Source: Candidatus Omnitrophota bacterium
GTDB lineage: Bacteria > Omnitrophota > Gorgyraeia > Zapsychrales > Zapsychraceae
Direction: 5' to 3'
Length of the DNA: 64,000 nucleotides
Assembly (NCBI GenBank): GCA_003522725.1
Contig: DPIG01000078.1
Location: 18,746 to 82,745 of the forward strand
Shown: in pieces, positions 11,232 through 30,066 of the stretch
Layout: every line of letters begins with the position of its first letter
How positions within the stretch are numbered: the first letter of the stretch is position 1
The notes under the pieces: model-generated
Database searches by the model: none
What the model saw: only the letters and a program-made list of their open reading frames with translations
What the model was told of the DNA's origin: nothing
Made by a program: the position numbers and the translations under genes

Positions 11232-12107
11232 TTACCTCTTCGCCTCCTGCTGGACCTTGAACGCTTCAATACCGTTACGCATGAGCATGACGACGGTGAC
11301 CGGGCCCACCCCGCCGGGCACCGGCGTGATAAATGACGCCCTCCGGCCCGCTTTTTCAAATTCGATGTCGCCTGTGATTCCGGAGCCCACTTTATTGATC
11401 CCCACGTCAATGACAATGGCGCCTTCCTTGATCCAGTCCCCTTTGATGAGCCCCGCTTTCCCCACCGCGACGACCAGGACATCCGCGCTCCCCACGTGCT
11501 CGACGAGCCGTCCGGCCTGGCTGGTGGCCAGATGACACACGGTGACCGTGGCGTCCTGCGCGAGCAACAGCAAACTCAAAGGTTTGCCGACGATCTCGCT
11601 GTGGCCGACCACGACCGCTTCTTTCCCGCGCAGTTTGACGCCCGTGGAGCGGATAAGTTCCATGACCGCGGCAGGGGTGCAGGGGATGATGCGCGTTTGG
11701 CCCAGCATCATCTTGCCGATATTGGTGACGTTGATGCCTTCGAGGTCCTTGGACGGGGCCACATAGTTGGCCACGGCGCGGTAATCGATCTGGTCGGGCA
11801 CGGGTTTGTGGATCATGATGCCGTGCACGCCGGAATCGCTATCGAGTTCCTTGATGACGCTGATCAGTTTGGCCTGGGTCGTGTCCCCCGAAAGGATCTT
11901 CAGTTCATATTTGATGCCGATATATTCGGCCGTCTTTTTCTGGGAATTGGCGTAGGCGCAGGAACCTGGGTCGGAGCCCACCATCACGTTGACCAGGTGC
12001 GGCACGCCGCCAAAGGTTTCTTTGAGCCGCGCCACTTCCTTTTTGAGCTCGTCCTTGAGCTTTTTGGCCAGGGCCGTACCGTCAAGGATGTGCGCGGTGG
12101 CGTTCAT
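11232..12107 (-). CDS. folD: Bifunctional methylene-THF dehydrogenase / methenyl-THF cyclohydrolase
   Basis: ILDGTALAKK..., motifs (VGSDPGSCAYANSQKK, PCTPAAVMELI, VVVGHSEIVGKP), 291 aa. Confidence 0.92.
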   Translation of the reverse strand: MNATAHILDGTALAKKLKDELKKEVARLKETFGGVPHLVNVMVGSDPGSCAYANSQKKTAEYIGIKYELKILSGDTTQAKLISVIKELDSDSGVHGIMIHKPVPDQIDYRAVANYVAPSKDLEGINVTNIGKMMLGQTRIIPCTPAAVMELIRSTGVKLRGKEAVVVGHSEIVGKPLSLLLLAQDATVTVCHLATSQAGRLVEHVGSADVLVVAVGKAGLIKGDWIKEGAIVIDVGINKVGSGITGDIEFEKAGRRASFITPVPGGVGPVTVVMLMRNGIEAFKVQQEAKR

Positions 12108-12589
12108 TGGTTGATCTCCACGTTGAGCTTCGCCGAATTAAACGCGGCGAGCAAAAGTTCCAGCGCGACCTTCACGTCCGAAACAAGATATTTGTTGCCG
12201 TAGCGAACTAACGTCGGCGCCAATTGCACGGCTTTGTAACATAGTTTGCATGCTTCCAGAGGGACTTCCCTTGCCTTGCGCCGGGCCGCGTTACGCTTCG
12301 CGGGCGCGGCCTTGCGCGTTTTGACAACGTTCAAATACGCCCGCGCGTCCAGGTCAACGAGCGCCAAAAAACGTTTGCGCAATCGCTCGCTCGTCTTGAG
12401 ACTTGCCTTTATCTTTTGTTCATTGGCACGCGATGAGGTCTTACCGAGCGAATAATTCGCGACCATGGACAGAAGCGCCGCCCCAAGCGCCGCCGTCACC
12501 GCCGCCGCCGACCCACCCCCCGGCGCGGGGACCTTGAGCGAGAGCACGCGCGTGTATTCACTTAAACTGTAATTTCGAAAGGGTTTCAT
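12104..12589 (-). CDS. Cyclodeaminase/cyclohydrolase family protein (FTCD C-terminal-like; FchA-type methenyl-THF cyclohydrolase)
   Basis: GGGSAAAVTAALGAALLSMVANYS motif typical of the formiminotransferase-cyclodeaminase C-domain. Overlaps folD by 4 nt (ATGA). Confidence 0.7.
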   Translation of the reverse strand: MKPFRNYSLSEYTRVLSLKVPAPGGGSAAAVTAALGAALLSMVANYSLGKTSSRANEQKIKASLKTSERLRKRFLALVDLDARAYLNVVKTRKAAPAKRNAARRKAREVPLEACKLCYKAVQLAPTLVRYGNKYLVSDVKVALELLLAAFNSAKLNVEINQ

Positions 12590-12597
12590 GGCTGTAA

Positions 12598-12674
12598 GGT
12601 TATCCGATTGTCCGGAAATCCGTGACTGGGTAATCCGGATACCCGGGTATCCGGTTCCTCGGATCCCCGGAACC
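12598..12674. repeat. Array A of degenerate 8-10 bp direct repeats (NNATCCGG type)
   Basis: GGTTATCCG ATTGTCCGG AAATCCG...GTAATCCGG ATACCCGG GTATCCGG TTCCTCGG ATCCCCGG, ending in the inverted GGTTCC...GGAACC. It lies between fchA and the Abi gene. Confidence 0.6.
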
Positions 12675-12716
12675 TGTCAATTTTCACATGCGCTCATCAT
12701 ATCCTAAACACGACGG

Positions 12717-13487
12717 TTATTCAACTTCAAAGGCGTTTTTATCGTGTATCTTTTTCTTCCGAGATTCCCATGTTTGAAAAAGGAATGTAGCCATCGTCCC
12801 GGAAAGATTAACTGCAAGTTCCGCATGCCGTGGTGCTGGCCGGCTCCCTGATACCCCTTTGCCATGCGCATCACTATGTCGGTTTCGTAAAGCGCCTAAT
12901 CCTTCAACGACACTCTGGCAACCACCCAATATCTGTTTAAAAATTTGCTCTGTATGTTGGCTCGGTGAAAGATTAAGCTGTCTGACGGTCAAAGTGTAAA
13001 GTTTGGGGAGGTCGACATCATTGCTATATGTTATGCCTGACTCATCAAGTATATGCTTGCATGCAGATTCAAGCAGCGTGCGAGCTGTTGTAATCGCACC
13101 CTCAGGGTCAGCAGCTCTGCGTTCTAATGCTTTTTGCCAAATTTCTTGAATGTAGGTTGAATCCAAAGTCTGCACAGTTGCGGAAATTGAAGCGTCGCTT
13201 GGCGTGCGTGAATCGGTTTCTAGTGTAGTCAGGAGCGGATCAAACTCTTGCTGTAAGTACCCTCTTCGTTGAGCATAGGTTGCGAATTTCGGCTGAATGA
13301 AACTCCAGAATTCAGAAAGGTTGCGACATGTGTGGACAAAACGAGGTAGTAGCTTTGCAATACGCGGAGATGTAATAAGTTCACGACGTAAATTTTTGTA
13401 TTCCAAGTCGTCACCGTTACCACCGGTCGCATGTGAAACTAGCATTATCTTCAGTGATTCAACTTGATTAATTTTTTCTTCATTCAT
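12717..13487 (-). CDS. Abortive-infection-like protein with a C-terminal HEPN (Abi_C-type) domain
   Basis: The C-terminus (TLLESACKHILDE...LPKLY...LGALRNRHSDAHGKG...RHAELAVNLSGTMATFL) fits the Abi_C/HEPN pattern, with an Rx4H motif (RHSDAH). The gene is visibly AT-rich compared with its neighbours. 256 aa. Confidence 0.65.
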   Translation of the reverse strand: MNEEKINQVESLKIMLVSHATGGNGDDLEYKNLRRELITSPRIAKLLPRFVHTCRNLSEFWSFIQPKFATYAQRRGYLQQEFDPLLTTLETDSRTPSDASISATVQTLDSTYIQEIWQKALERRAADPEGAITTARTLLESACKHILDESGITYSNDVDLPKLYTLTVRQLNLSPSQHTEQIFKQILGGCQSVVEGLGALRNRHSDAHGKGVSGSRPAPRHAELAVNLSGTMATFLFQTWESRKKKIHDKNAFEVE

Positions 13488-13490
13488 GTC

Positions 13491-13597
13491 GTATTATTCC
13501 GCGTTATTTCGGGCGTCTTTGTATTATTCCGGGGACGCGTACTCTCTCTGCGTTATTCCGGCGTTATTCCGCAGGTTATTCCGAGGTTATTCCGGGG
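13491..13597. repeat. Array B: seven copies of the (G)TTATTCCG(G) repeat, the last four in tandem with an 11-12 bp period
   Basis: TATTATTCCGCG GTTATTTCGGG...TATTATTCCGGGG...CGTTATTCCGGCG TTATTCCGCAG GTTATTCCGAG GTTATTCCGGGG. It lies immediately 5' of the Abi gene start. Confidence 0.7.
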
Positions 13598-13710
13598 CCA
13601 CATGACGTAACCTTAATTATTGCCGATTGTGTGTCTTTGCAGACGCTTTAGCTAAGTTCCTGGCTTTGCGTTAATTATAAAACAAATCTTTCACTTCGTG
13701 TTGAGTATTT

Positions 13711-13745
13711 CGGCCCCGCTGTAAGTGGCCCCCGGGCCGCTTTTT
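13711..13745 (+). terminator. Possible plus-strand intrinsic terminator with no plus-strand gene upstream
   Basis: CGGCCC...GGGCCG stem (6 bp, GC-rich, alternative pairings possible) followed by CTTTTTG. The minus-strand complement has no U-tract. Confidence 0.3.
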
Positions 13746-13806
13746 GAATTCGTGATTTTAACATAATTTGAATTCTCGCCGTTCGGCAAGAATTGACTTT
13801 ACAGCT

Positions 13807-14028
13807 TTAACGATAGCTGGCGTGTGTGCCGATATCGTAATAAATCACCTCGTGGGCGTTGATGAAACGAAACAGCACACGGTACTCCCGATTAATGGAA
13901 TACGCCCAATAGTCTTTCAGCGGTCCCTTAAGCTTGTGCGTTCGCAGGGGCGGTGTAAAAGCGTTGTCCCGGAATAACTGGTCTTTCTTGATGGCCAGGT
14001 CTTGAATATGTGTTGGGAGTTTCTGCAC
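13807..14028 (-). CDS. RelE/HigB/YafQ-like mRNA-interferase toxin, N-terminally short, no cognate antitoxin evident
   Basis: LKGPLKDYWAYSINREYRVLFRFINAHEVIYYDIGTHASY matches the conserved C-terminal half of HigB/YafQ-type toxins. The only start is a GTG and the frame closes 6 codons upstream. No HTH antitoxin ORF in the 300 bp downstream. Confidence 0.5.
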   Translation of the reverse strand: MQKLPTHIQDLAIKKDQLFRDNAFTPPLRTHKLKGPLKDYWAYSINREYRVLFRFINAHEVIYYDIGTHASYR

Positions 14029-14075
14029 AATTTGAACTCCCGATAGTCAGCGGAAATCTGGATTTCTAAGGTCTT

Positions 14076-14327
14076 CTAATAGACATCTTTACGATGGCCG
14101 ACGTGCAGAATGACCACCTTTTTATCCCGGTCATGGATATCGTAAATAACGCGGTAACGCCCGACACGGATCCTCCAGCCGGGACGGGCGATCAGCTTCT
14201 TGCTGCCGTGAGGGCGCGGGCTGGAAGAAAGTTTTTCGATATGCTGGCATACACGCTGATAATCAACGGCAGGCAGTCCGGCGAGCTCTTTTTGCGCGCG
14301 GCGAAGGATAAAAACGCTGTAGTTCAT
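14076..14327 (-). CDS. relE: Type II toxin, RelE/ParE family
   Basis: IRVGRYRVIYDIHDRDKKVVILHVGHRKDVY C-terminal signature. 83 aa. Overlaps the upstream antitoxin by ATGA. Confidence 0.8.
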   Translation of the reverse strand: MNYSVFILRRAQKELAGLPAVDYQRVCQHIEKLSSSPRPHGSKKLIARPGWRIRVGRYRVIYDIHDRDKKVVILHVGHRKDVY

Positions 14328-14527
14328 TTGCGGGAGCGTTCAATTTCTTTTCTGGCTTGGGCGAACGGGATGGATTCCTCGCCGGACGCCTTGGCCGCGT
14401 CATAAGCTCGGATGGACTCGAGCTCTTCAGCCTGCCTGATGAGTCGGCGATATTCCCTGTTGGTCAGGACGACCCCCACCTGGCGGCCATGGGAATCAAC
14501 AACATGATTCTCTTTTATTTTAATCAT
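14324..14527 (-). CDS. Type II antitoxin, Phd/YefM-like
   Basis: MIKIKENHVVDSHGRQVGVVLTNREYRRLIRQAEELESIRAYDAAK... Start placed at ATG 14525-14527, preceded by AAGGAG. The ORF-track TTG start at 14554 is less likely. Confidence 0.7.
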   Translation of the reverse strand: MIKIKENHVVDSHGRQVGVVLTNREYRRLIRQAEELESIRAYDAAKASGEESIPFAQARKEIERSRK

Positions 14528-14636
14528 GGGCACTCCTTTTTTCAAAAGTTTCAAAGGTCATCCCTTTGGTGAATGACTCGACTTTTTCAATGGCATCGAC
14601 AATATCGGCGACATAATCCCGGTATTGACGGATCAT
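14520..14636 (-). pseudogene. Remnant (38 codons) of a HepT/HEPN toxin gene, truncated where the Phd start codon begins
   Basis: Minus-strand translation MIRQYRDYVADIVDAIEKVESFTKGMTFETFEKRSAHD* matches the conserved N-terminus of HepT (DUF86) toxins. Its ATG overlaps the MNT stop (ATGA), the typical MNT-HepT coupling. The frame is cut by a TAA that overlaps the Phd ATG. Confidence 0.6.
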
Positions 14637-14926
14637 ACGTAAACAACCTCACGCATGATGTATTTACCGATAGTAGGCTTTAACGAACCTTTCATGACGA
14701 GATCAACGCGTTTTTTCAATATGGCGCTAAGGCGGTTTTCCGTCCGGACATAATCGAAAAGGCCGGGGGTCTGGCTGAATTCAACGAGGATGTCGACGTC
14801 ACTGTTCTTTTTTTGCTTTCCACGCACGTAGGAACCAAAGACACCCAGCATCTTGACCTTGAATTGTCGCTTCAGGGCGGATTTGTTCTGTTTTAAAACT
14901 TGTTTGATTTTATCCAGTTCGCTCAT
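14633..14926 (-). CDS. Minimal nucleotidyltransferase (MNT) antitoxin of a HepT/MNT pair
   Basis: GVFGSYVRGKQKKNSDVDILVEF is the GS...DxD pol-beta-type NTase motif. About 97 aa. Alternative TTG start at 14932. Confidence 0.75.
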   Translation of the reverse strand: MSELDKIKQVLKQNKSALKRQFKVKMLGVFGSYVRGKQKKNSDVDILVEFSQTPGLFDYVRTENRLSAILKKRVDLVMKGSLKPTIGKYIMREVVYV

Positions 14927-14992
14927 AGTCAAAGTATATCATAATTATCTGCCTGCCGATGAAAGCATTTTTACGTTTTTCGGGCTGTTTTT

Positions 14993-15014
14993 GGTTATTC
15001 CGTGGTTATTCCGG
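14993..15014. repeat. Array C: two tandem copies of GGTTATTCCG(G)
   Basis: GGTTATTCCGT GGTTATTCCGGG, immediately 5' of the MNT gene and adjoining the 15013-15054 inverted repeat. Confidence 0.6.
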
Positions 15015-15054
15015 GACACAATACTTAACTCACAGCAATTAAGTATCGTGTCCC
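15013..15054. repeat. 16-bp near-perfect inverted repeat spanning the symporter stop codon
   Basis: GGGACACAATACTTAA-(10 nt)-TTAAGTATCGTGTCCC, one mismatch. No U-tract on either strand. A related half-site lies at 22793-22815. Confidence 0.6.
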
Positions 15055-22818: not shown

Positions 22819-25800
22819 TTATTGCAGGATCCTGGTATAGTTCGCTTCATGGTCTTTGACCCATATGCCGTTGACCTTGGACCAGATGGACGCGTAAAGC
22901 GGTGTGCCATCCAGCGGGACGGTCACGGTGACGGAAGTATTTGATCCCGCATTGATATTGCCGACGTTTTTCGTGTTGGGAGCGGTCCCCAGCCACAGAT
23001 AATACTGCGCTGCCGCCGGATTCGTCGTCCAGATGAACGTTACGTTCGCCGTATCGATCTGGCTCCCCGGCGCAGGTGAAATGATCCGGGCCCGTTGGTC
23101 GGCGCGGGTATAGCTCACTTCATGATCTTTGACCCATATGCCGTTGACCCTGGACCAGATGGACGCGTAAAGCGGTGTGCCATCCAAGGGGACGTTTACA
23201 ATTACCGAAGTATTCATTCCGGCATTGATGTTACCGACGTTGTTGATGCTTGGAGCAGTACCCAACCACAAATAATACTGTGTTGCCGCGGGATTTGCCG
23301 TCCAGGCAAACATCACGCTAGTGGTCGTGATCTGACTGCCGGGTACGGGCGAAGTGATCAGGGCTTTTTTGTTACTGCGCGTATAACTTGCTTCATGGTC
23401 TTTGACCCATATGCCGTTGACCCTGGACCAGATGGACGCGTAAAGCGGTGTGCCATCCAGCGGGACGGTCACGGTGACGGAAGTATTTGATCCCGCATTG
23501 ATATTGCCGACGTTTTTCGTGTTGGGAGCGGTCCCCAGCCACAGATAATACTGCGCTGCCGCCGGATTCGTCGTCCAGATGAATGTTACGTTCGCCGTAT
23601 CGATCTGGCTCCCCGGCGCGGGCGACATGATCCGGGCCCGTTGGTCGGCGCGGGTATAGCTCACTTCATGGTCTTTGGCCCATTTCCCTTTGACTTTGGA
23701 CCAGATGGACGCGTAAAGCGGTGTGCCATCCAGCGGGACGGTCACGGTGACGGAAGTATTTGATCCCGCGTTGATATTGCCGACGTTTTTTGTGTTGGGA
23801 GCGGTCCCCAGCCACAGGTAATATTGCGTCGCGTCGGGATTCATTGTCCAGCGGAAGGTCACGTTCGCCGTATCGATCTGACTGCCCGGCGTGGGCGACA
23901 TGATCCGGGCCGGCCCTTTAACCGAAAGATATCCCTCGAGGATCCCCGTTAAGGAAATATTAGGTGAATGATGGGCCGCGGTATCGTATTTGCCGAATTT
24001 TTGTTCCAGCTGGACTTGGGAATCCGTGCTGACGTCGGGCGGCGCGTCATTGTAGACGTCATGCATAAACAAACCCCACTCGGTGGGGTATTGCGTCTGG
24101 TGCGCCTTGTACGTCCACATCGCCCAGTGCCAGTTTTTATTGCGGAATGTCGCCAAAAAATAGTCCCAGTTGGCCCGCTGATTGAAGCCGTTGAATTCGC
24201 CGATGAAGACCGGCACGTTGAAGATTTCCTGCGCGGAATTGTTCACCTTGCCGTCGAGGTACGCGCGGTGTCCGGGGACGTCTTTAATGCCGATGATATT
24301 TCCAAAACTGTCGAATTCGAACCCGTAATAATGGAATTCGTAGACGACATTTTGCCAGCCGTAAACGTTGGGGTGCGGAAGGGTGTCCCAGTCGAATTCG
24401 CTGGGGACGCTTTCCATGACAATGATGTGCCTGGGGTCAACCGCGCGGATCGCCTGATAGAGCGCGTTATAAAATGGCCAAAGGCCGGCGGGCCCGGTGA
24501 AGGTCGGGTCGTGGTCCAAGGCGCCAAAAGGTTCATTCAAAAGATCATAACCCATGACATTGGTCAAAAAAGCGTAACGTGACGCGACCGCCGTCCAGAA
24601 TTCGATGGTCTTGGCGCGGTGCGCGGCGCCGTCAGGGCCGTTCTCGAAAAGTTTGTTGTAGTTCGCGCGGCCGGAATGCGCCTCGTCGCTTTGCGCCCCC
24701 GGCGCGCCGTGAAGGTCCAACAGGACGTAGATCCCGCGGTTGGCGCATTGCTCGATGATCCAATCCAGTTTGGTGAAGTTTGTGAACGCGCCGGTTGAAT
24801 CTTGCAGGGCTTCATAATAAATCGGCAGGCGGACCAGATTGACGCCCATACGCATCAAGTGGTCCAGATCGATCGTTTGGATATACGCGTCCTGATACGC
24901 GTTAAGAAGATTTGCCGACCCGAACCTGCGGACCAATTCCGCGCGGATGCTGAAGTCGTCATCATCGTTTGGGTTCGCGGCGGTGTACCCGCCTCCGATC
25001 CCGGTAAATTCCGGCTCGATCAATAACAGGTTCCCCAGATTGACGCCCCCCAGGAGGATCGGATCACCAAGGCCATCCATTTCCAGGATAGCCATGCCGT
25101 CCGTCTTGAGATACCCGCCTTCGAGGGAAGTGACCGGCAATGCCGGGCTCCAACCGGTCGAATCGAAGATGTCCGTTAATCCGGTCCTTAAATGCGCGCG
25201 GATGCGGTACCATGAGCCTTCTTCATAATAACTCGCGGCTGGCAGCAAAGCGTGCGGGCCGCGGTATATTTCCGTCCAGGGCCCGTTACGGGACGGGCCT
25301 TTCTGGATCTCATACTGGTCGGCGAACTCGAGCGGTTCCCACTGCAATCCGGCAAAGGCGAACCTTGGATGGCGAAGCAAGACCGGAGGACGGAGCGAAT
25401 AAACAACCTCGCTCCATCGCGAAATATAGGGGATCGGGTCAGTGGAGGTGACGTCCTCTTTCCAGCGGACCCGCAGCCACCGTGGGGACAAAGGTTTGAT
25501 AAAAGAAGAAAGGCCCGTCCCCTCGTAAATGGTCGTCCATGGTCCCTGCGGTCCCGCGACGCTTTCCTGCAATTCGTACGCGCCCGCGCCGGCAATCGCG
25601 TCCCACGCCGCGGCCACTCCCTGGGCCGATTCTGAAACAACGACGGTCGGCGGTGTTTTAATGGCCCTGATATCATCGATGTAGTAAACTCCGGGCCAGA
25701 AAAACTGGAACTGGATCTTGTTGATGCCGCTGAGGTCCAGGCCGGCGGGTAATCCGCTAAAGGGAACGGCCAGTTGTGTCCATTGCCCGCGCACCGCCCG

Positions 25801-27704: not shown

Positions 27705-27768
27705 ATACGTATTTCGTATCTCGTCGCTCGTATTTCGCAAAAACGAAATACGAGATACGAGATACAAA
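27705..27768. repeat. REP-like palindromic element, copy A (CGTATCTCG/CGAGATACG units), between rplS and rnhB
   Basis: CGTATTTCGTATCTCGTCGCTCGTATTTCG-caaaaa-CGAAATACGAGATACGAGATAC gives an imperfect hairpin of about 22 bp. It shares the core GTATCTCGTCGCTCGTAT with copy B. Confidence 0.65.

Positions 27769-28181: not shown

Positions 28182-30066
<1,885 letters not shown>

Follow-up and report, generated by a model that had tools for sequence, protein, structure and literature searches.

Two arrays of short direct repeats (B and C) in a 64,000-nt stretch of the genome of an uncultured groundwater Omnitrophota bacterium, hereafter the window, are probably the ends of non-autonomous elements of the TIRYT type ('TIRtrons'; TnpA-Y1 subclass 2.1, RAYT group 1), with a third array (A) standing apart from them. 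B and C are kin to the ends of TIRYT transposons, C runs into a hairpin, and related genomes differ in the presence or absence of these copies. In the proposed arrangement, C would be a complete mini-element whose two inverted repeats are joined as a hairpin, B would consist of two tandem solo ends, the second continuing into a longer junction module, and these relics would mark where gene cassettes meet, in a part of the genome that varies among related Omnitrophica. The features concerned are the following.

13491-13542, plus strand: array B1, units GTATTATTCCG, CGTTATTTCGG and GTATTATTCCGG, then the partial inverted-repeat start GGGGACGCGTAC
13551-13595, plus strand: array B2, four units arranged head to tail and repeating every 11-12 nt, CGTTATTCCGG, CGTTATTCCGCA, GGTTATTCCGA and GGTTATTCCGG
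13594-13806, plus strand: junction (J) module, opening with the variant inverted repeat GGGGCCACATGACGTAACC and closing at the stop codon of the ParE-like gene
13965-13978, minus strand: inverted copy TGTCCCGGAATAAC, 14 nt, the perfect complement of 15005-15018 (unit/inverted-repeat junction)
14993-15014, plus strand: array C, units GGTTATTCCGT (14993-15003) and GGTTATTCCGG (15004-15014)
15013-15054, plus strand: inverted-repeat pair forming a gene-less hairpin, GGGACACAATACTTAA, a 10-nt loop and TTAAGTATCGTGTCCC

Nine exact copies of the octamer TTATTCCG were found in the 64 kb, all within 13494-15013; shuffled sequences contained a mean of 3.3 copies (maximum 8), dispersed across the window. 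The motif was therefore confined to the island and not spread uniformly. An earlier note on this DNA had counted seven units in array B, the last four in tandem at 11-12 nt, and two tandem units in array C, and both counts hold: the B units lie at 13491-13501, 13502-13512, 13521-13532, 13551-13561, 13562-13573, 13574-13584 and 13585-13595, and Tandem Repeats Finder reported 13550-13595 (period 11, 4.1 copies, score 55) for B and 14992-15013 (period 11, 2.0 copies, 100% match) for C. The B units form two groups, each terminating in a GGGG(A/C)C motif (GGGGACGCGTAC, 13531-13542, and GGGGCCACATGACGTAACC, 13594-13612). The same note had correctly set CRISPR aside, as repeats of 24-48 nt with unique spacers do not fit 11-nt, head-to-tail, spacer-free units.

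Two features had gone unmentioned in that note, namely the inverted copy TGTCCCGGAATAAC in a toxin open reading frame (ORF) and, at C, a 16+16 nt inverted repeat (15013-15028 / 15039-15054) into which the units run directly. The C hairpin had a folding energy of -10.7 kcal/mol (z = -6.6), and none of 200 shuffles was as stable; B2 gave no fold signal (z = +2.1). Within the J module, TTAATTATTGCCGATTG, which resembles the ATTTATTCTTGACA promoter stretch of the intact elements described below, is followed by a terminator-like hairpin on the plus strand (13723-13742 plus TTTTT) and by a second, GAATTC-rich hairpin, and its TTTGAATTC and GTAACCTTA occurred nowhere else in the window. A scan for sigma-70 promoters and terminators detected no promoter in B or C and only the plus-strand terminator-like hairpin at 13723-13742. 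Searching Rfam at E <= 5 returned two chance-level matches only, and a full-text literature search for the decamer returned cloning primers only. Motif spacing was identical in 14 near-identical contigs of the Rifle population covering array B (L001-L016), so strain-level polymorphism of the array was uninformative.

Pairs of adjacent units were searched in a collection with one genome per species, where at least 119 stretches matched, and with a stricter pattern in metagenomes, where 39 contigs matched. A subset of these loci went beyond the search pattern, with several units followed by GGGGACA(y)A(r)TACC and often by an inverted partner tens of bases on (e.g. L025, L028, L060, L069, L099, L111, L125, L131, L141, L151, L152, L155, L164, L165, L172 and L175). 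This combination of array and GGGGACA motif flanked transposase genes in Smithellaceae, Syntrophaceae, Desulfuromonadales and anonymous metagenome contigs. In L152 and L155, it was followed by a TTGAC(A/G)...TA(A/G)(T/G)AT promoter and then by an ORF starting MARI(A/S)R(V/I)V.PG.PHH.TQRG, and the same transposase gene or its remains adjoined the arrays in L025, L141 and L044.

The array-adjacent protein was assigned to Pfam PF01797 (Y1_Tnp), its best NCBIfam match being the REP-associated tyrosine transposase, under that model's cut-off, and it had more than 7,000 relatives. Alignments of the homologues showed invariant NHVH, FQ, Y[IV]xxNP and WSS motifs. According to PMC6006769, these motifs are the signature of TnpA-Y1 subclass 2.1, which is equated there with RAYT group 1 of Bertels et al. 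(PMC5581495) and probably with the TIRYTs of Di Nocera et al. 2013 (PMC3733652); the inverted repeats flanking TIRYT genes are given a common GGGGWSAS consensus in PMC3733652 and PMC6006769. An AlphaFold model of the transposase (pLDDT 88) best matched 4ER8 (E. coli TnpA-REP), followed by the IS608 and ISDra2 transposases, and 4ER8 was the only solved relative by sequence.

An intact element reads (8-11 nt unit)n, GGGGACAyAATACC..., promoter, 220-aa Y1/HUH gene, ...GGTATTrTGTCCCC, (unit)n, the outermost segment of the inverted repeat being a decamer iterated one to nine times. Fourteen transposase-adjacent ends aligned without gaps, each with one or more short units ending in WWTYCSGG followed by GGACAyAATACC. 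The unit differed among elements and between the left and right ends of one element (observed units: GTTATTCCGG, GAGCATTTCC, GGCGATTTCG, GGGAATCAGG, GGTGAATCC, GCATAATCG and GATTTCCG), and the linkers between units varied in length (G, GG, GGG, GTG, CG). Some arrays (L152, L204, L069, L141) included the first 5-22 nt of the inverted repeat in each repeat. In homologues fetched by protein alone (L181-L192, L193-L201), the inverted repeat was likewise bordered on its outer side by short tandem repeats, whose units had other sequences. The right-hand array of an element very often ended a few bases from the next start codon (L141, L182, L183, L191, L111), as also seen at L021 3458-3470 and at 13488-13501 in the window. 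In some TIRYT genes (P0045 and P0049; L183 2870-2891), the C-terminal MSPE of the transposase and its stop codon are themselves provided by the right inverted repeat together with the first unit (ATGTCCCCGGAATAA).

When an end profile built solely from these 14 transposase-flanking ends was searched against the window, its best match was array C (14993-15027, E = 5.6e-5; profile positions 3-38, including the inverted repeat), followed by B2 (13574-13602, E = 0.012) and B1 (13522-13536, E = 0.24). The same sequence flanks subclass 2.1 Y1 genes in inverted orientation in L152, L155, L141, L025 and L183. The extragenic copies in the window are a hairpin dimer (C) and a group of two solo ends (B), the exception being the 14-mer in the toxin ORF. 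This TGTCCCGGAATAAC copy sits in frame inside the truncated ParE/YafQ-like ORF, where it encodes QLFRDN, and is kept in the orthologue of L021 (L021 3783-3796); either a fossil insertion or chance could account for it.

Two other readings of the repeat were considered and set aside, the first as unsupported. TTATTCCGG shares TTATNC with the DnaA box, and PMC6006769 reports DnaA_C-like tails for part of subclass 2.1, but Pfam (E <= 5) and PDB profile searches detected no DnaA-type domain in the 220-aa subgroup. As for a phage origin, a motif scan of viral sequences gave three unrelated matches, and a protein scan of viral contigs retrieved a distant TIRYT subfamily, which has its own inverted repeat (GAATTACGGTGACAGTGCACTC) and in which the outer 8-mer or the whole end is sometimes doubled.

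To place these arrays among their neighbours, the genes of the region, all of which lie on the minus strand, are listed below.

12104-12589, minus strand: fchA (FTCD_C)
12717-13487, minus strand: gene with an abortive infection C-terminal domain (Abi_C; PF14355, E = 7e-24), the cassette between A and B
13807-14028, minus strand: ParE/YafQ/HigB-like toxin ORF, 5'-truncated
14076-14327, minus strand: ParE
14324-14554, minus strand: Phd-like antitoxin
Between the Phd-like antitoxin and MNT genes, within 14076-14932, minus strand: 38-aa remnant ORF (HEPN remnant)
14633-14932, minus strand: MNT nucleotidyltransferase, likely ATG at 14926
14926-14980, minus strand: promoter region upstream of MNT, with an extended -10 TGATATACT read by eye, 93% identical to a region of L021
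15039-16295, minus strand: SDF symporter

The closest comparison was provided by L021, labelled as a Planctomycetales metagenome-assembled genome, whose core genes shared about 82% DNA identity with those of the window at a syntenic locus. It carries, in order, fchA, a DUF6998 gene replacing Abi, two B2-like junction copies, a complete ParE-like toxin gene with its antitoxin, a region 93% identical to the MNT upstream region, and a 310-aa core gene, and it is without the symporter, ParE/Phd and MNT. The B2 region of the window was 89-90% identical to the two junction copies, and array B comprises 4+3 units in the window vs 2+1 in L021; similar arrays in other copy numbers are thus present in a syntenic relative. 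About 18 N-terminal codons of the ParE-like ORF and its antitoxin are missing in the window, both being present in L021. Because the near-identical promoter region stands before MNT in the window (14926-14980) and before the antitoxin-toxin pair in L021 (4131-4185), the ParE/Phd/MNT block must have replaced the antitoxin and the 5' end of the toxin gene, through joints without an array. The MNT ATG lies 6 nt past a TGnTATACT motif, a spacing that suggests a leaderless MNT mRNA.

Among further relatives, L203-L207 encoded FchA proteins with 87-90% identity and carried other genes between yraN/UPF0102 and fchA, including SDF, YceI, a DUF5674 pair and ORF6N. Together with L021, they mark the whole yraN/UPF0102-fchA stretch as a cassette region that varies within this lineage of Omnitrophica. 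Most of the L203-L207 junctions carry a composite module like that at 13594-13806 in the window, and J-like modules were seen at cassette junctions of L021, L203, L204, L205 and L207. In these relatives the module measures 100-150 nt and comprises small GAATTC-rich hairpins, AAAAAGCGGCC...GGCCGC, the variant inverted repeat GGTTACGTC.TGTG.CCCC and GGAATAAC-type units.

The C hairpin itself varies in position. L204 carries it almost base for base at another site, behind yraN (L204 2339-2505), preceded on its left by (GGAAATAA-GGGGACAC)x4, every unit including the GGGGACAC motif. In the window, the SDF symporter gene ends in the right arm of the hairpin, which provides its final codons (GHDT) and its stop; the symporter of L205 is without the hairpin, and its homology to the window symporter stops past ...NGPKW. 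With the hairpin elsewhere in L204 and missing from the L205 symporter, the C element is an insertion or a recombination joint through which the final eight codons of the symporter gene were rewritten. The earlier proposal that arrays partition the island was thus partly right. B and C do mark junctions of mobile or variable DNA, at which relatives carry different cassettes with similar junction modules, but no array occurs among ParE, the Phd-like antitoxin, the remnant ORF and MNT (14076-14932), and none separates ParE/Phd, the HEPN remnant/MNT and the truncated ParE-like gene.

IS608 transposition by 'peel and paste' serves as a model for Y1 action. By analogy with TnpA-REP and its REP substrate (4ER8), with IS608 and with the account in PMC6006769, the Y1 enzyme would act on single-stranded DNA and recognise folded or paired inverted repeats. 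The unit together with the inverted repeat would be its predicted binding and cutting site, with cleavage adjacent to the inverted repeats and the unit|GGGG boundary as the obvious candidate. The unit may have become iterated through slippage where replication stalls at the hairpin, or through successive rounds of cutting and joining; either process would fit the linkers of varying length and the pieces of inverted repeat included in some units. The window copies may be inert scars of old joints because no transposase gene is in sight, and they probably are inert junction scars unless a TIRYT gene lies elsewhere in the genome.

Several points weigh against assigning B and C to TIRYT elements. 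The GGGGWSAS consensus is matched at 7 of 8 positions in the window copies (in array C, GGGACAC preceded by a C base; GGGGACGC in B1 and GGGGCCAC in B2), although it is matched at 8 of 8 in the homologous copies GGGGACAC of L021 and L204. The B2 inverted repeat GGGGCCACATGACGTAACC is a divergent variant with a weak profile match (E = 0.012). Many of the at least 119 stretches and 39 contigs retrieved are chance matches or unrelated repeats, the latter including Nocardia intergenic regions, 24-nt arrays and coding repeats, and as the scans were seeded with the motif, they cannot show how frequent arrays are without a nearby transposase. Neither the 64-kb window nor the flanks (20 kb) of L001-L019 and L203-L207 yielded a TIRYT gene, so activity of the element in this genome is unproven. 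Finally, the binding and cutting site described above is pure inference, and biochemical work on TIRYT enzymes was not found in the available parts of the family literature.

Simple slippage, i.e. microsatellite-like instability with no element behind it, would account for the difference in B unit number between the window and L021 and for the variable linkers. It would leave unexplained the 14-22 nt after the array (GGGACAyAATAC...), which are common to transposase flanks in unrelated organisms, the recovery of the window copies by a profile made from such flanks, and the hairpin partner and second site in L204, which indicate a defined element. Pure slippage was rejected because of the shared inverted repeat, and we consider it quite unlikely.

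The earlier note had also suggested repeated binding sites for one DNA-binding protein, of operator or iteron type. As operators for an island regulator (Phd, MNT or an Abi partner) at the Abi and MNT promoters, they would be direct repeats along a single helix face, comparable to ParR/parC, omega heptads or PhoB boxes. Their period of 11-12 nt is close to one helical turn, and each of B and C precedes a gene start when read on the gene strand, the minus-strand end of B1 being 3 nt ahead of the Abi ATG. In other phyla, however, the decamer array stands beside transposase, PIN, RelE, HEPN, AIPR, methylase and metabolic genes with no common regulator, on both sides of transposase genes and in either orientation, its copy number and spacing vary freely, and L021 has the MNT-type promoter without array C. 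A toxin-antitoxin (TA) operator was rejected because the array recurs across phyla, next to unrelated genes and to either side of transposase genes, and we regard it as very improbable; the sites are not locus-specific, and the operator or iteron reading gains no support. The idea of a single binding protein may still hold, but only with a Y1/HUH transposase, encoded elsewhere, as that protein; Phd, MNT and Abi are unlikely binders because the identical array with GGGGACA flanks transposase genes and quite different genes elsewhere.

A role of the arrays as transcribed RNA is unsupported and has equally little probability. In one version, a plus-strand small RNA comprising the array, the conserved stretch and the terminator at 13723-13742 would be antisense to the 5' end of Abi, in keeping with a terminator-like hairpin about 130 nt downstream of array B; in the other, GGA motifs in the 5' untranslated region would bind a CsrA-like protein, the gene-strand units reading CGGAAUAAC up to the start codon. 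Neither gains from the lack of Rfam matches, of a promoter for a plus-strand transcript and of a fold signal in B2, nor from the inconstant orientation of the array relative to neighbouring genes (L028 and L025 vs the window). Type III TA antitoxin RNAs (ToxI-like) consist of tandem repeats of about 34-45 nt on the toxin strand, with a terminator and then the gene of an endoribonuclease toxin downstream. This candidate was rejected, the units here being 11 nt long, the only terminator-like site lying on the opposite strand, and the downstream gene being Abi_C and not of the ToxN/AbiQ type.

Least probable of all are integron-type attC sites or an integrase-less attC cluster, in which an IntI tyrosine recombinase would have assembled the island as an array of cassettes: small, co-oriented cassettes, many of them TA or unknown genes, are indeed separated by structured repeats between conserved genes in a region variable among relatives, but the architecture misfits (no RYYYAAC...GTTRRRY pair, GTTATTC deviating from GTTRRRY, no inverse core upstream on the same strand, no single imperfect palindrome across the B junction, an unfolded B2, no Rfam match beyond chance level at E <= 5, and tandem decamers, a repeat chemistry foreign to attC) and no integrase domain was detected in the window region, L001-L015, L021 or L203-L207, on which grounds attC was rejected. 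An attC site is an imperfect palindrome of 57-141 nt, R''(RYYYAAC)-L''...L'-R'(GTTRRRY), at the 3' end of each cassette, and in an integron IntI stands with attI at one end of the array.

Array A, which the earlier note had counted as about nine units of the same repeat, proved to be of another kind, so that the supposed single family in three arrays is reduced to B and C.

12590-12683, minus strand: array A, the 5' leader of fchA, between the promoter TTGAAT-17-TATGAT (12724-12696) and the fchA ATG (12589)

It consists of short palindromic units and, unlike B and C, does not occupy a cassette junction of their kind. It contains four WATCCG motifs about 16 nt apart (12601, 12617, 12632, 12648), the densest such cluster in the window (simulated maximum 3), as well as a 20-bp palindrome without mismatches, CCGGATACCCGGGTATCCGG (12635-12654). 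Of its units, the first alone (GGTTATCCGA) is like the B/C unit, a likeness confined to GGTTATCCG; the TIRYT-end profile gave no match on A, and A folds only moderately better than shuffles (z = -2.5). The promoter-like site of fchA is kept in relatives, and the corresponding position in L203, L204 and L205 holds a 90-150 nt leader made of other short palindromic units (GGTAACG, GGATCCG, GGGAATTAGG) and ending in CGGATAACC shortly before the ATG in L204, L205 and the window, or in the related CGTAACCATAACCG in L203; L021 has no fchA leader. Because the profile does not match and the leader position is kept in relatives that use other units, A is set apart from B and C and is a separate, fast-evolving structured leader or insertion of the fchA-folD operon. 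An inverted TIRYT end was also considered for A, as CGGATTTCC-GGACAATCGGATAACCTTA, with which it ends, is similar to the B2 variant, and was rejected since the profile misses A. The leader is hypervariable among close relatives, with promoter and start codon constant (regions compared: window 12590-12683; L203 5813-6003; L204 5844-6003; L205 5752-6003; L021 2958-2995).

At the loci given here, TIRYT-type elements recurrently adjoined TA and defence genes. Genes adjoining signature arrays elsewhere encoded PIN (L069, L175), a RelE-like protein with a helix-turn-helix protein (L099), MNT and HEPN (L111), AIPR (L172), a DNA methylase (L131) and GIY-YIG (L125). Among TIRYT loci fetched by protein identity, four of five distinct loci lay in or next to TA or restriction-type genes, with BrnT in L182, HicAB, BrnT and ribbon-helix-helix (RHH)-ParE in L183-L190, Phd-PIN in L192 and Mrr in L181. 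In L185, the BrnT, RHH-ParE and transposase cassettes and a preceding unnamed ORF each follow a GGG(G)A-type repeat start, the short repeats and a TTGACA promoter being clear at only some cassettes, and a relic of the transposase start, ATGGCTCGTATT, with inverted repeat and promoter, precedes the BrnT cassette.

These observations leave some room for a bolder and rather doubtful proposal, in which TIRYT-type ends and the junction module are the working joints of a Y1/HUH-driven cassette system that gathers TA, Abi and other small cassettes and shuffles them into hotspots. In such a system, the Y1/HUH transposase would replace the integron integrase, and the tandem units would be reiterated docking or cleavage sites. 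The yraN-fchA hotspot in Omnitrophica, the TIRYT genes in TA islands of Geobacter-like and other genomes, and the array, inverted repeat and promoter module before cassettes of the L183-L190 group (read in L185) would all allow it.

Compared with the TIRtrons and TIRYTs of the literature (Di Nocera et al. 2013, PMC3733652; Quentin et al. 2018, PMC6006769; Bertels et al. 2017, PMC5581495), the arrays share array-adjacent Y1/HUH genes elsewhere with subclass 2.1 motifs, the GGGGWSAS start of the inverted repeat, the occurrence as singles, hairpin dimers and clusters in intergenic DNA, and a low to moderate copy number with patchy distribution across phyla. They differ in that the window holds gene-less relics only, in the tandem iteration (up to nine times) of the outer 8-11 nt of the inverted repeat, and in their position at TA, Abi and defence cassette borders. 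REP/REPIN sequences with their RAYT (TnpA-REP) are similar as short non-autonomous hairpins and as inverted flanks of a single-copy Y1 gene, with 4ER8 as the closest structure; however, the foot of the C hairpin reads TTCCGG|GGACAC, with no GTAG or GTGG (the GT[AG]G that stands at the foot of the 20-40 nt palindrome in REPs), copies do not number in the hundreds, none lying outside 13491-15054 in the 64 kb, and the array-associated transposase has a longer C-terminal tail. The IS200/IS605 elements (IS608, ISDra2) have the same catalytic fold according to the model, and a substrate of single-stranded DNA with end structures would be expected in both; the TIRYT elements are without tnpB, have inverted repeats and tandem units instead of subterminal left and right hairpins, and have no defined target tetranucleotide. 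In an E. coli REPtron replaced by a TA operon, cited in PMC6006769, TA genes occupy the place of the Y1 gene between repeats (cf. L185), with another Y1 subclass and other repeats.

Among REP-type Y1 transposases, TIRYT (RAYT group 1, subclass 2.1) forms the largest group, and nothing on its substrates, on where it cuts or on its biological function was found in the available parts of the family literature. The loci described here suggest a candidate substrate, the iterated 8-11 nt outer unit plus GGGGACAyAATACC. The window adds gene-less members in a phylum unlisted for subclass 2.1 in the available text of PMC3733652, PMC6006769 and PMC5581495. That text also leaves unmentioned the tandem iteration of the outer repeat and the TA/defence neighbourhood; the family itself is already described, and iteration may be visible in the 2013 figures. 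Gene-less hairpin derivatives occupy different sites in related genomes, and if the link between TIRYT and TA or defence genes were causal, it would point to a second, single-stranded-DNA-dependent route to assembling such islands. For annotation, short tandem repeats at TA cassette borders should be compared with transposon ends before they are called operators.

Other repeats were encountered in the scans and elsewhere in the window. A conserved Nocardia intergenic region with several GTTATT-type direct repeats (L024, L029, L066, L104, L122, L132, L136, L138) is seemingly unrelated to TIRYT. A conserved soil-metagenome element, ...GGGTAACCGGAAGTTATTCCGGGAGTTATTCCGGGCCCGAAGTTCCGG..., was present in L139, L143, L146, L149, L150, L154 and L166, and in L150 and L166 it adjoins an apparent tRNA gene on the other strand. 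In the window, an intergenic palindrome with tandem 7-mer arms, (AGTGGTC)n...(GACCACT)n, lies at 325-394, and the palindromes at 27708-27765 and 29994-30062, (CGTATCT)n...(AGATACG)n, share a common unit and so form a small repeat family. At 22834-23911, a 273-bp unit is repeated 3.9 times with 81% identity and probably encodes a repeated protein domain.

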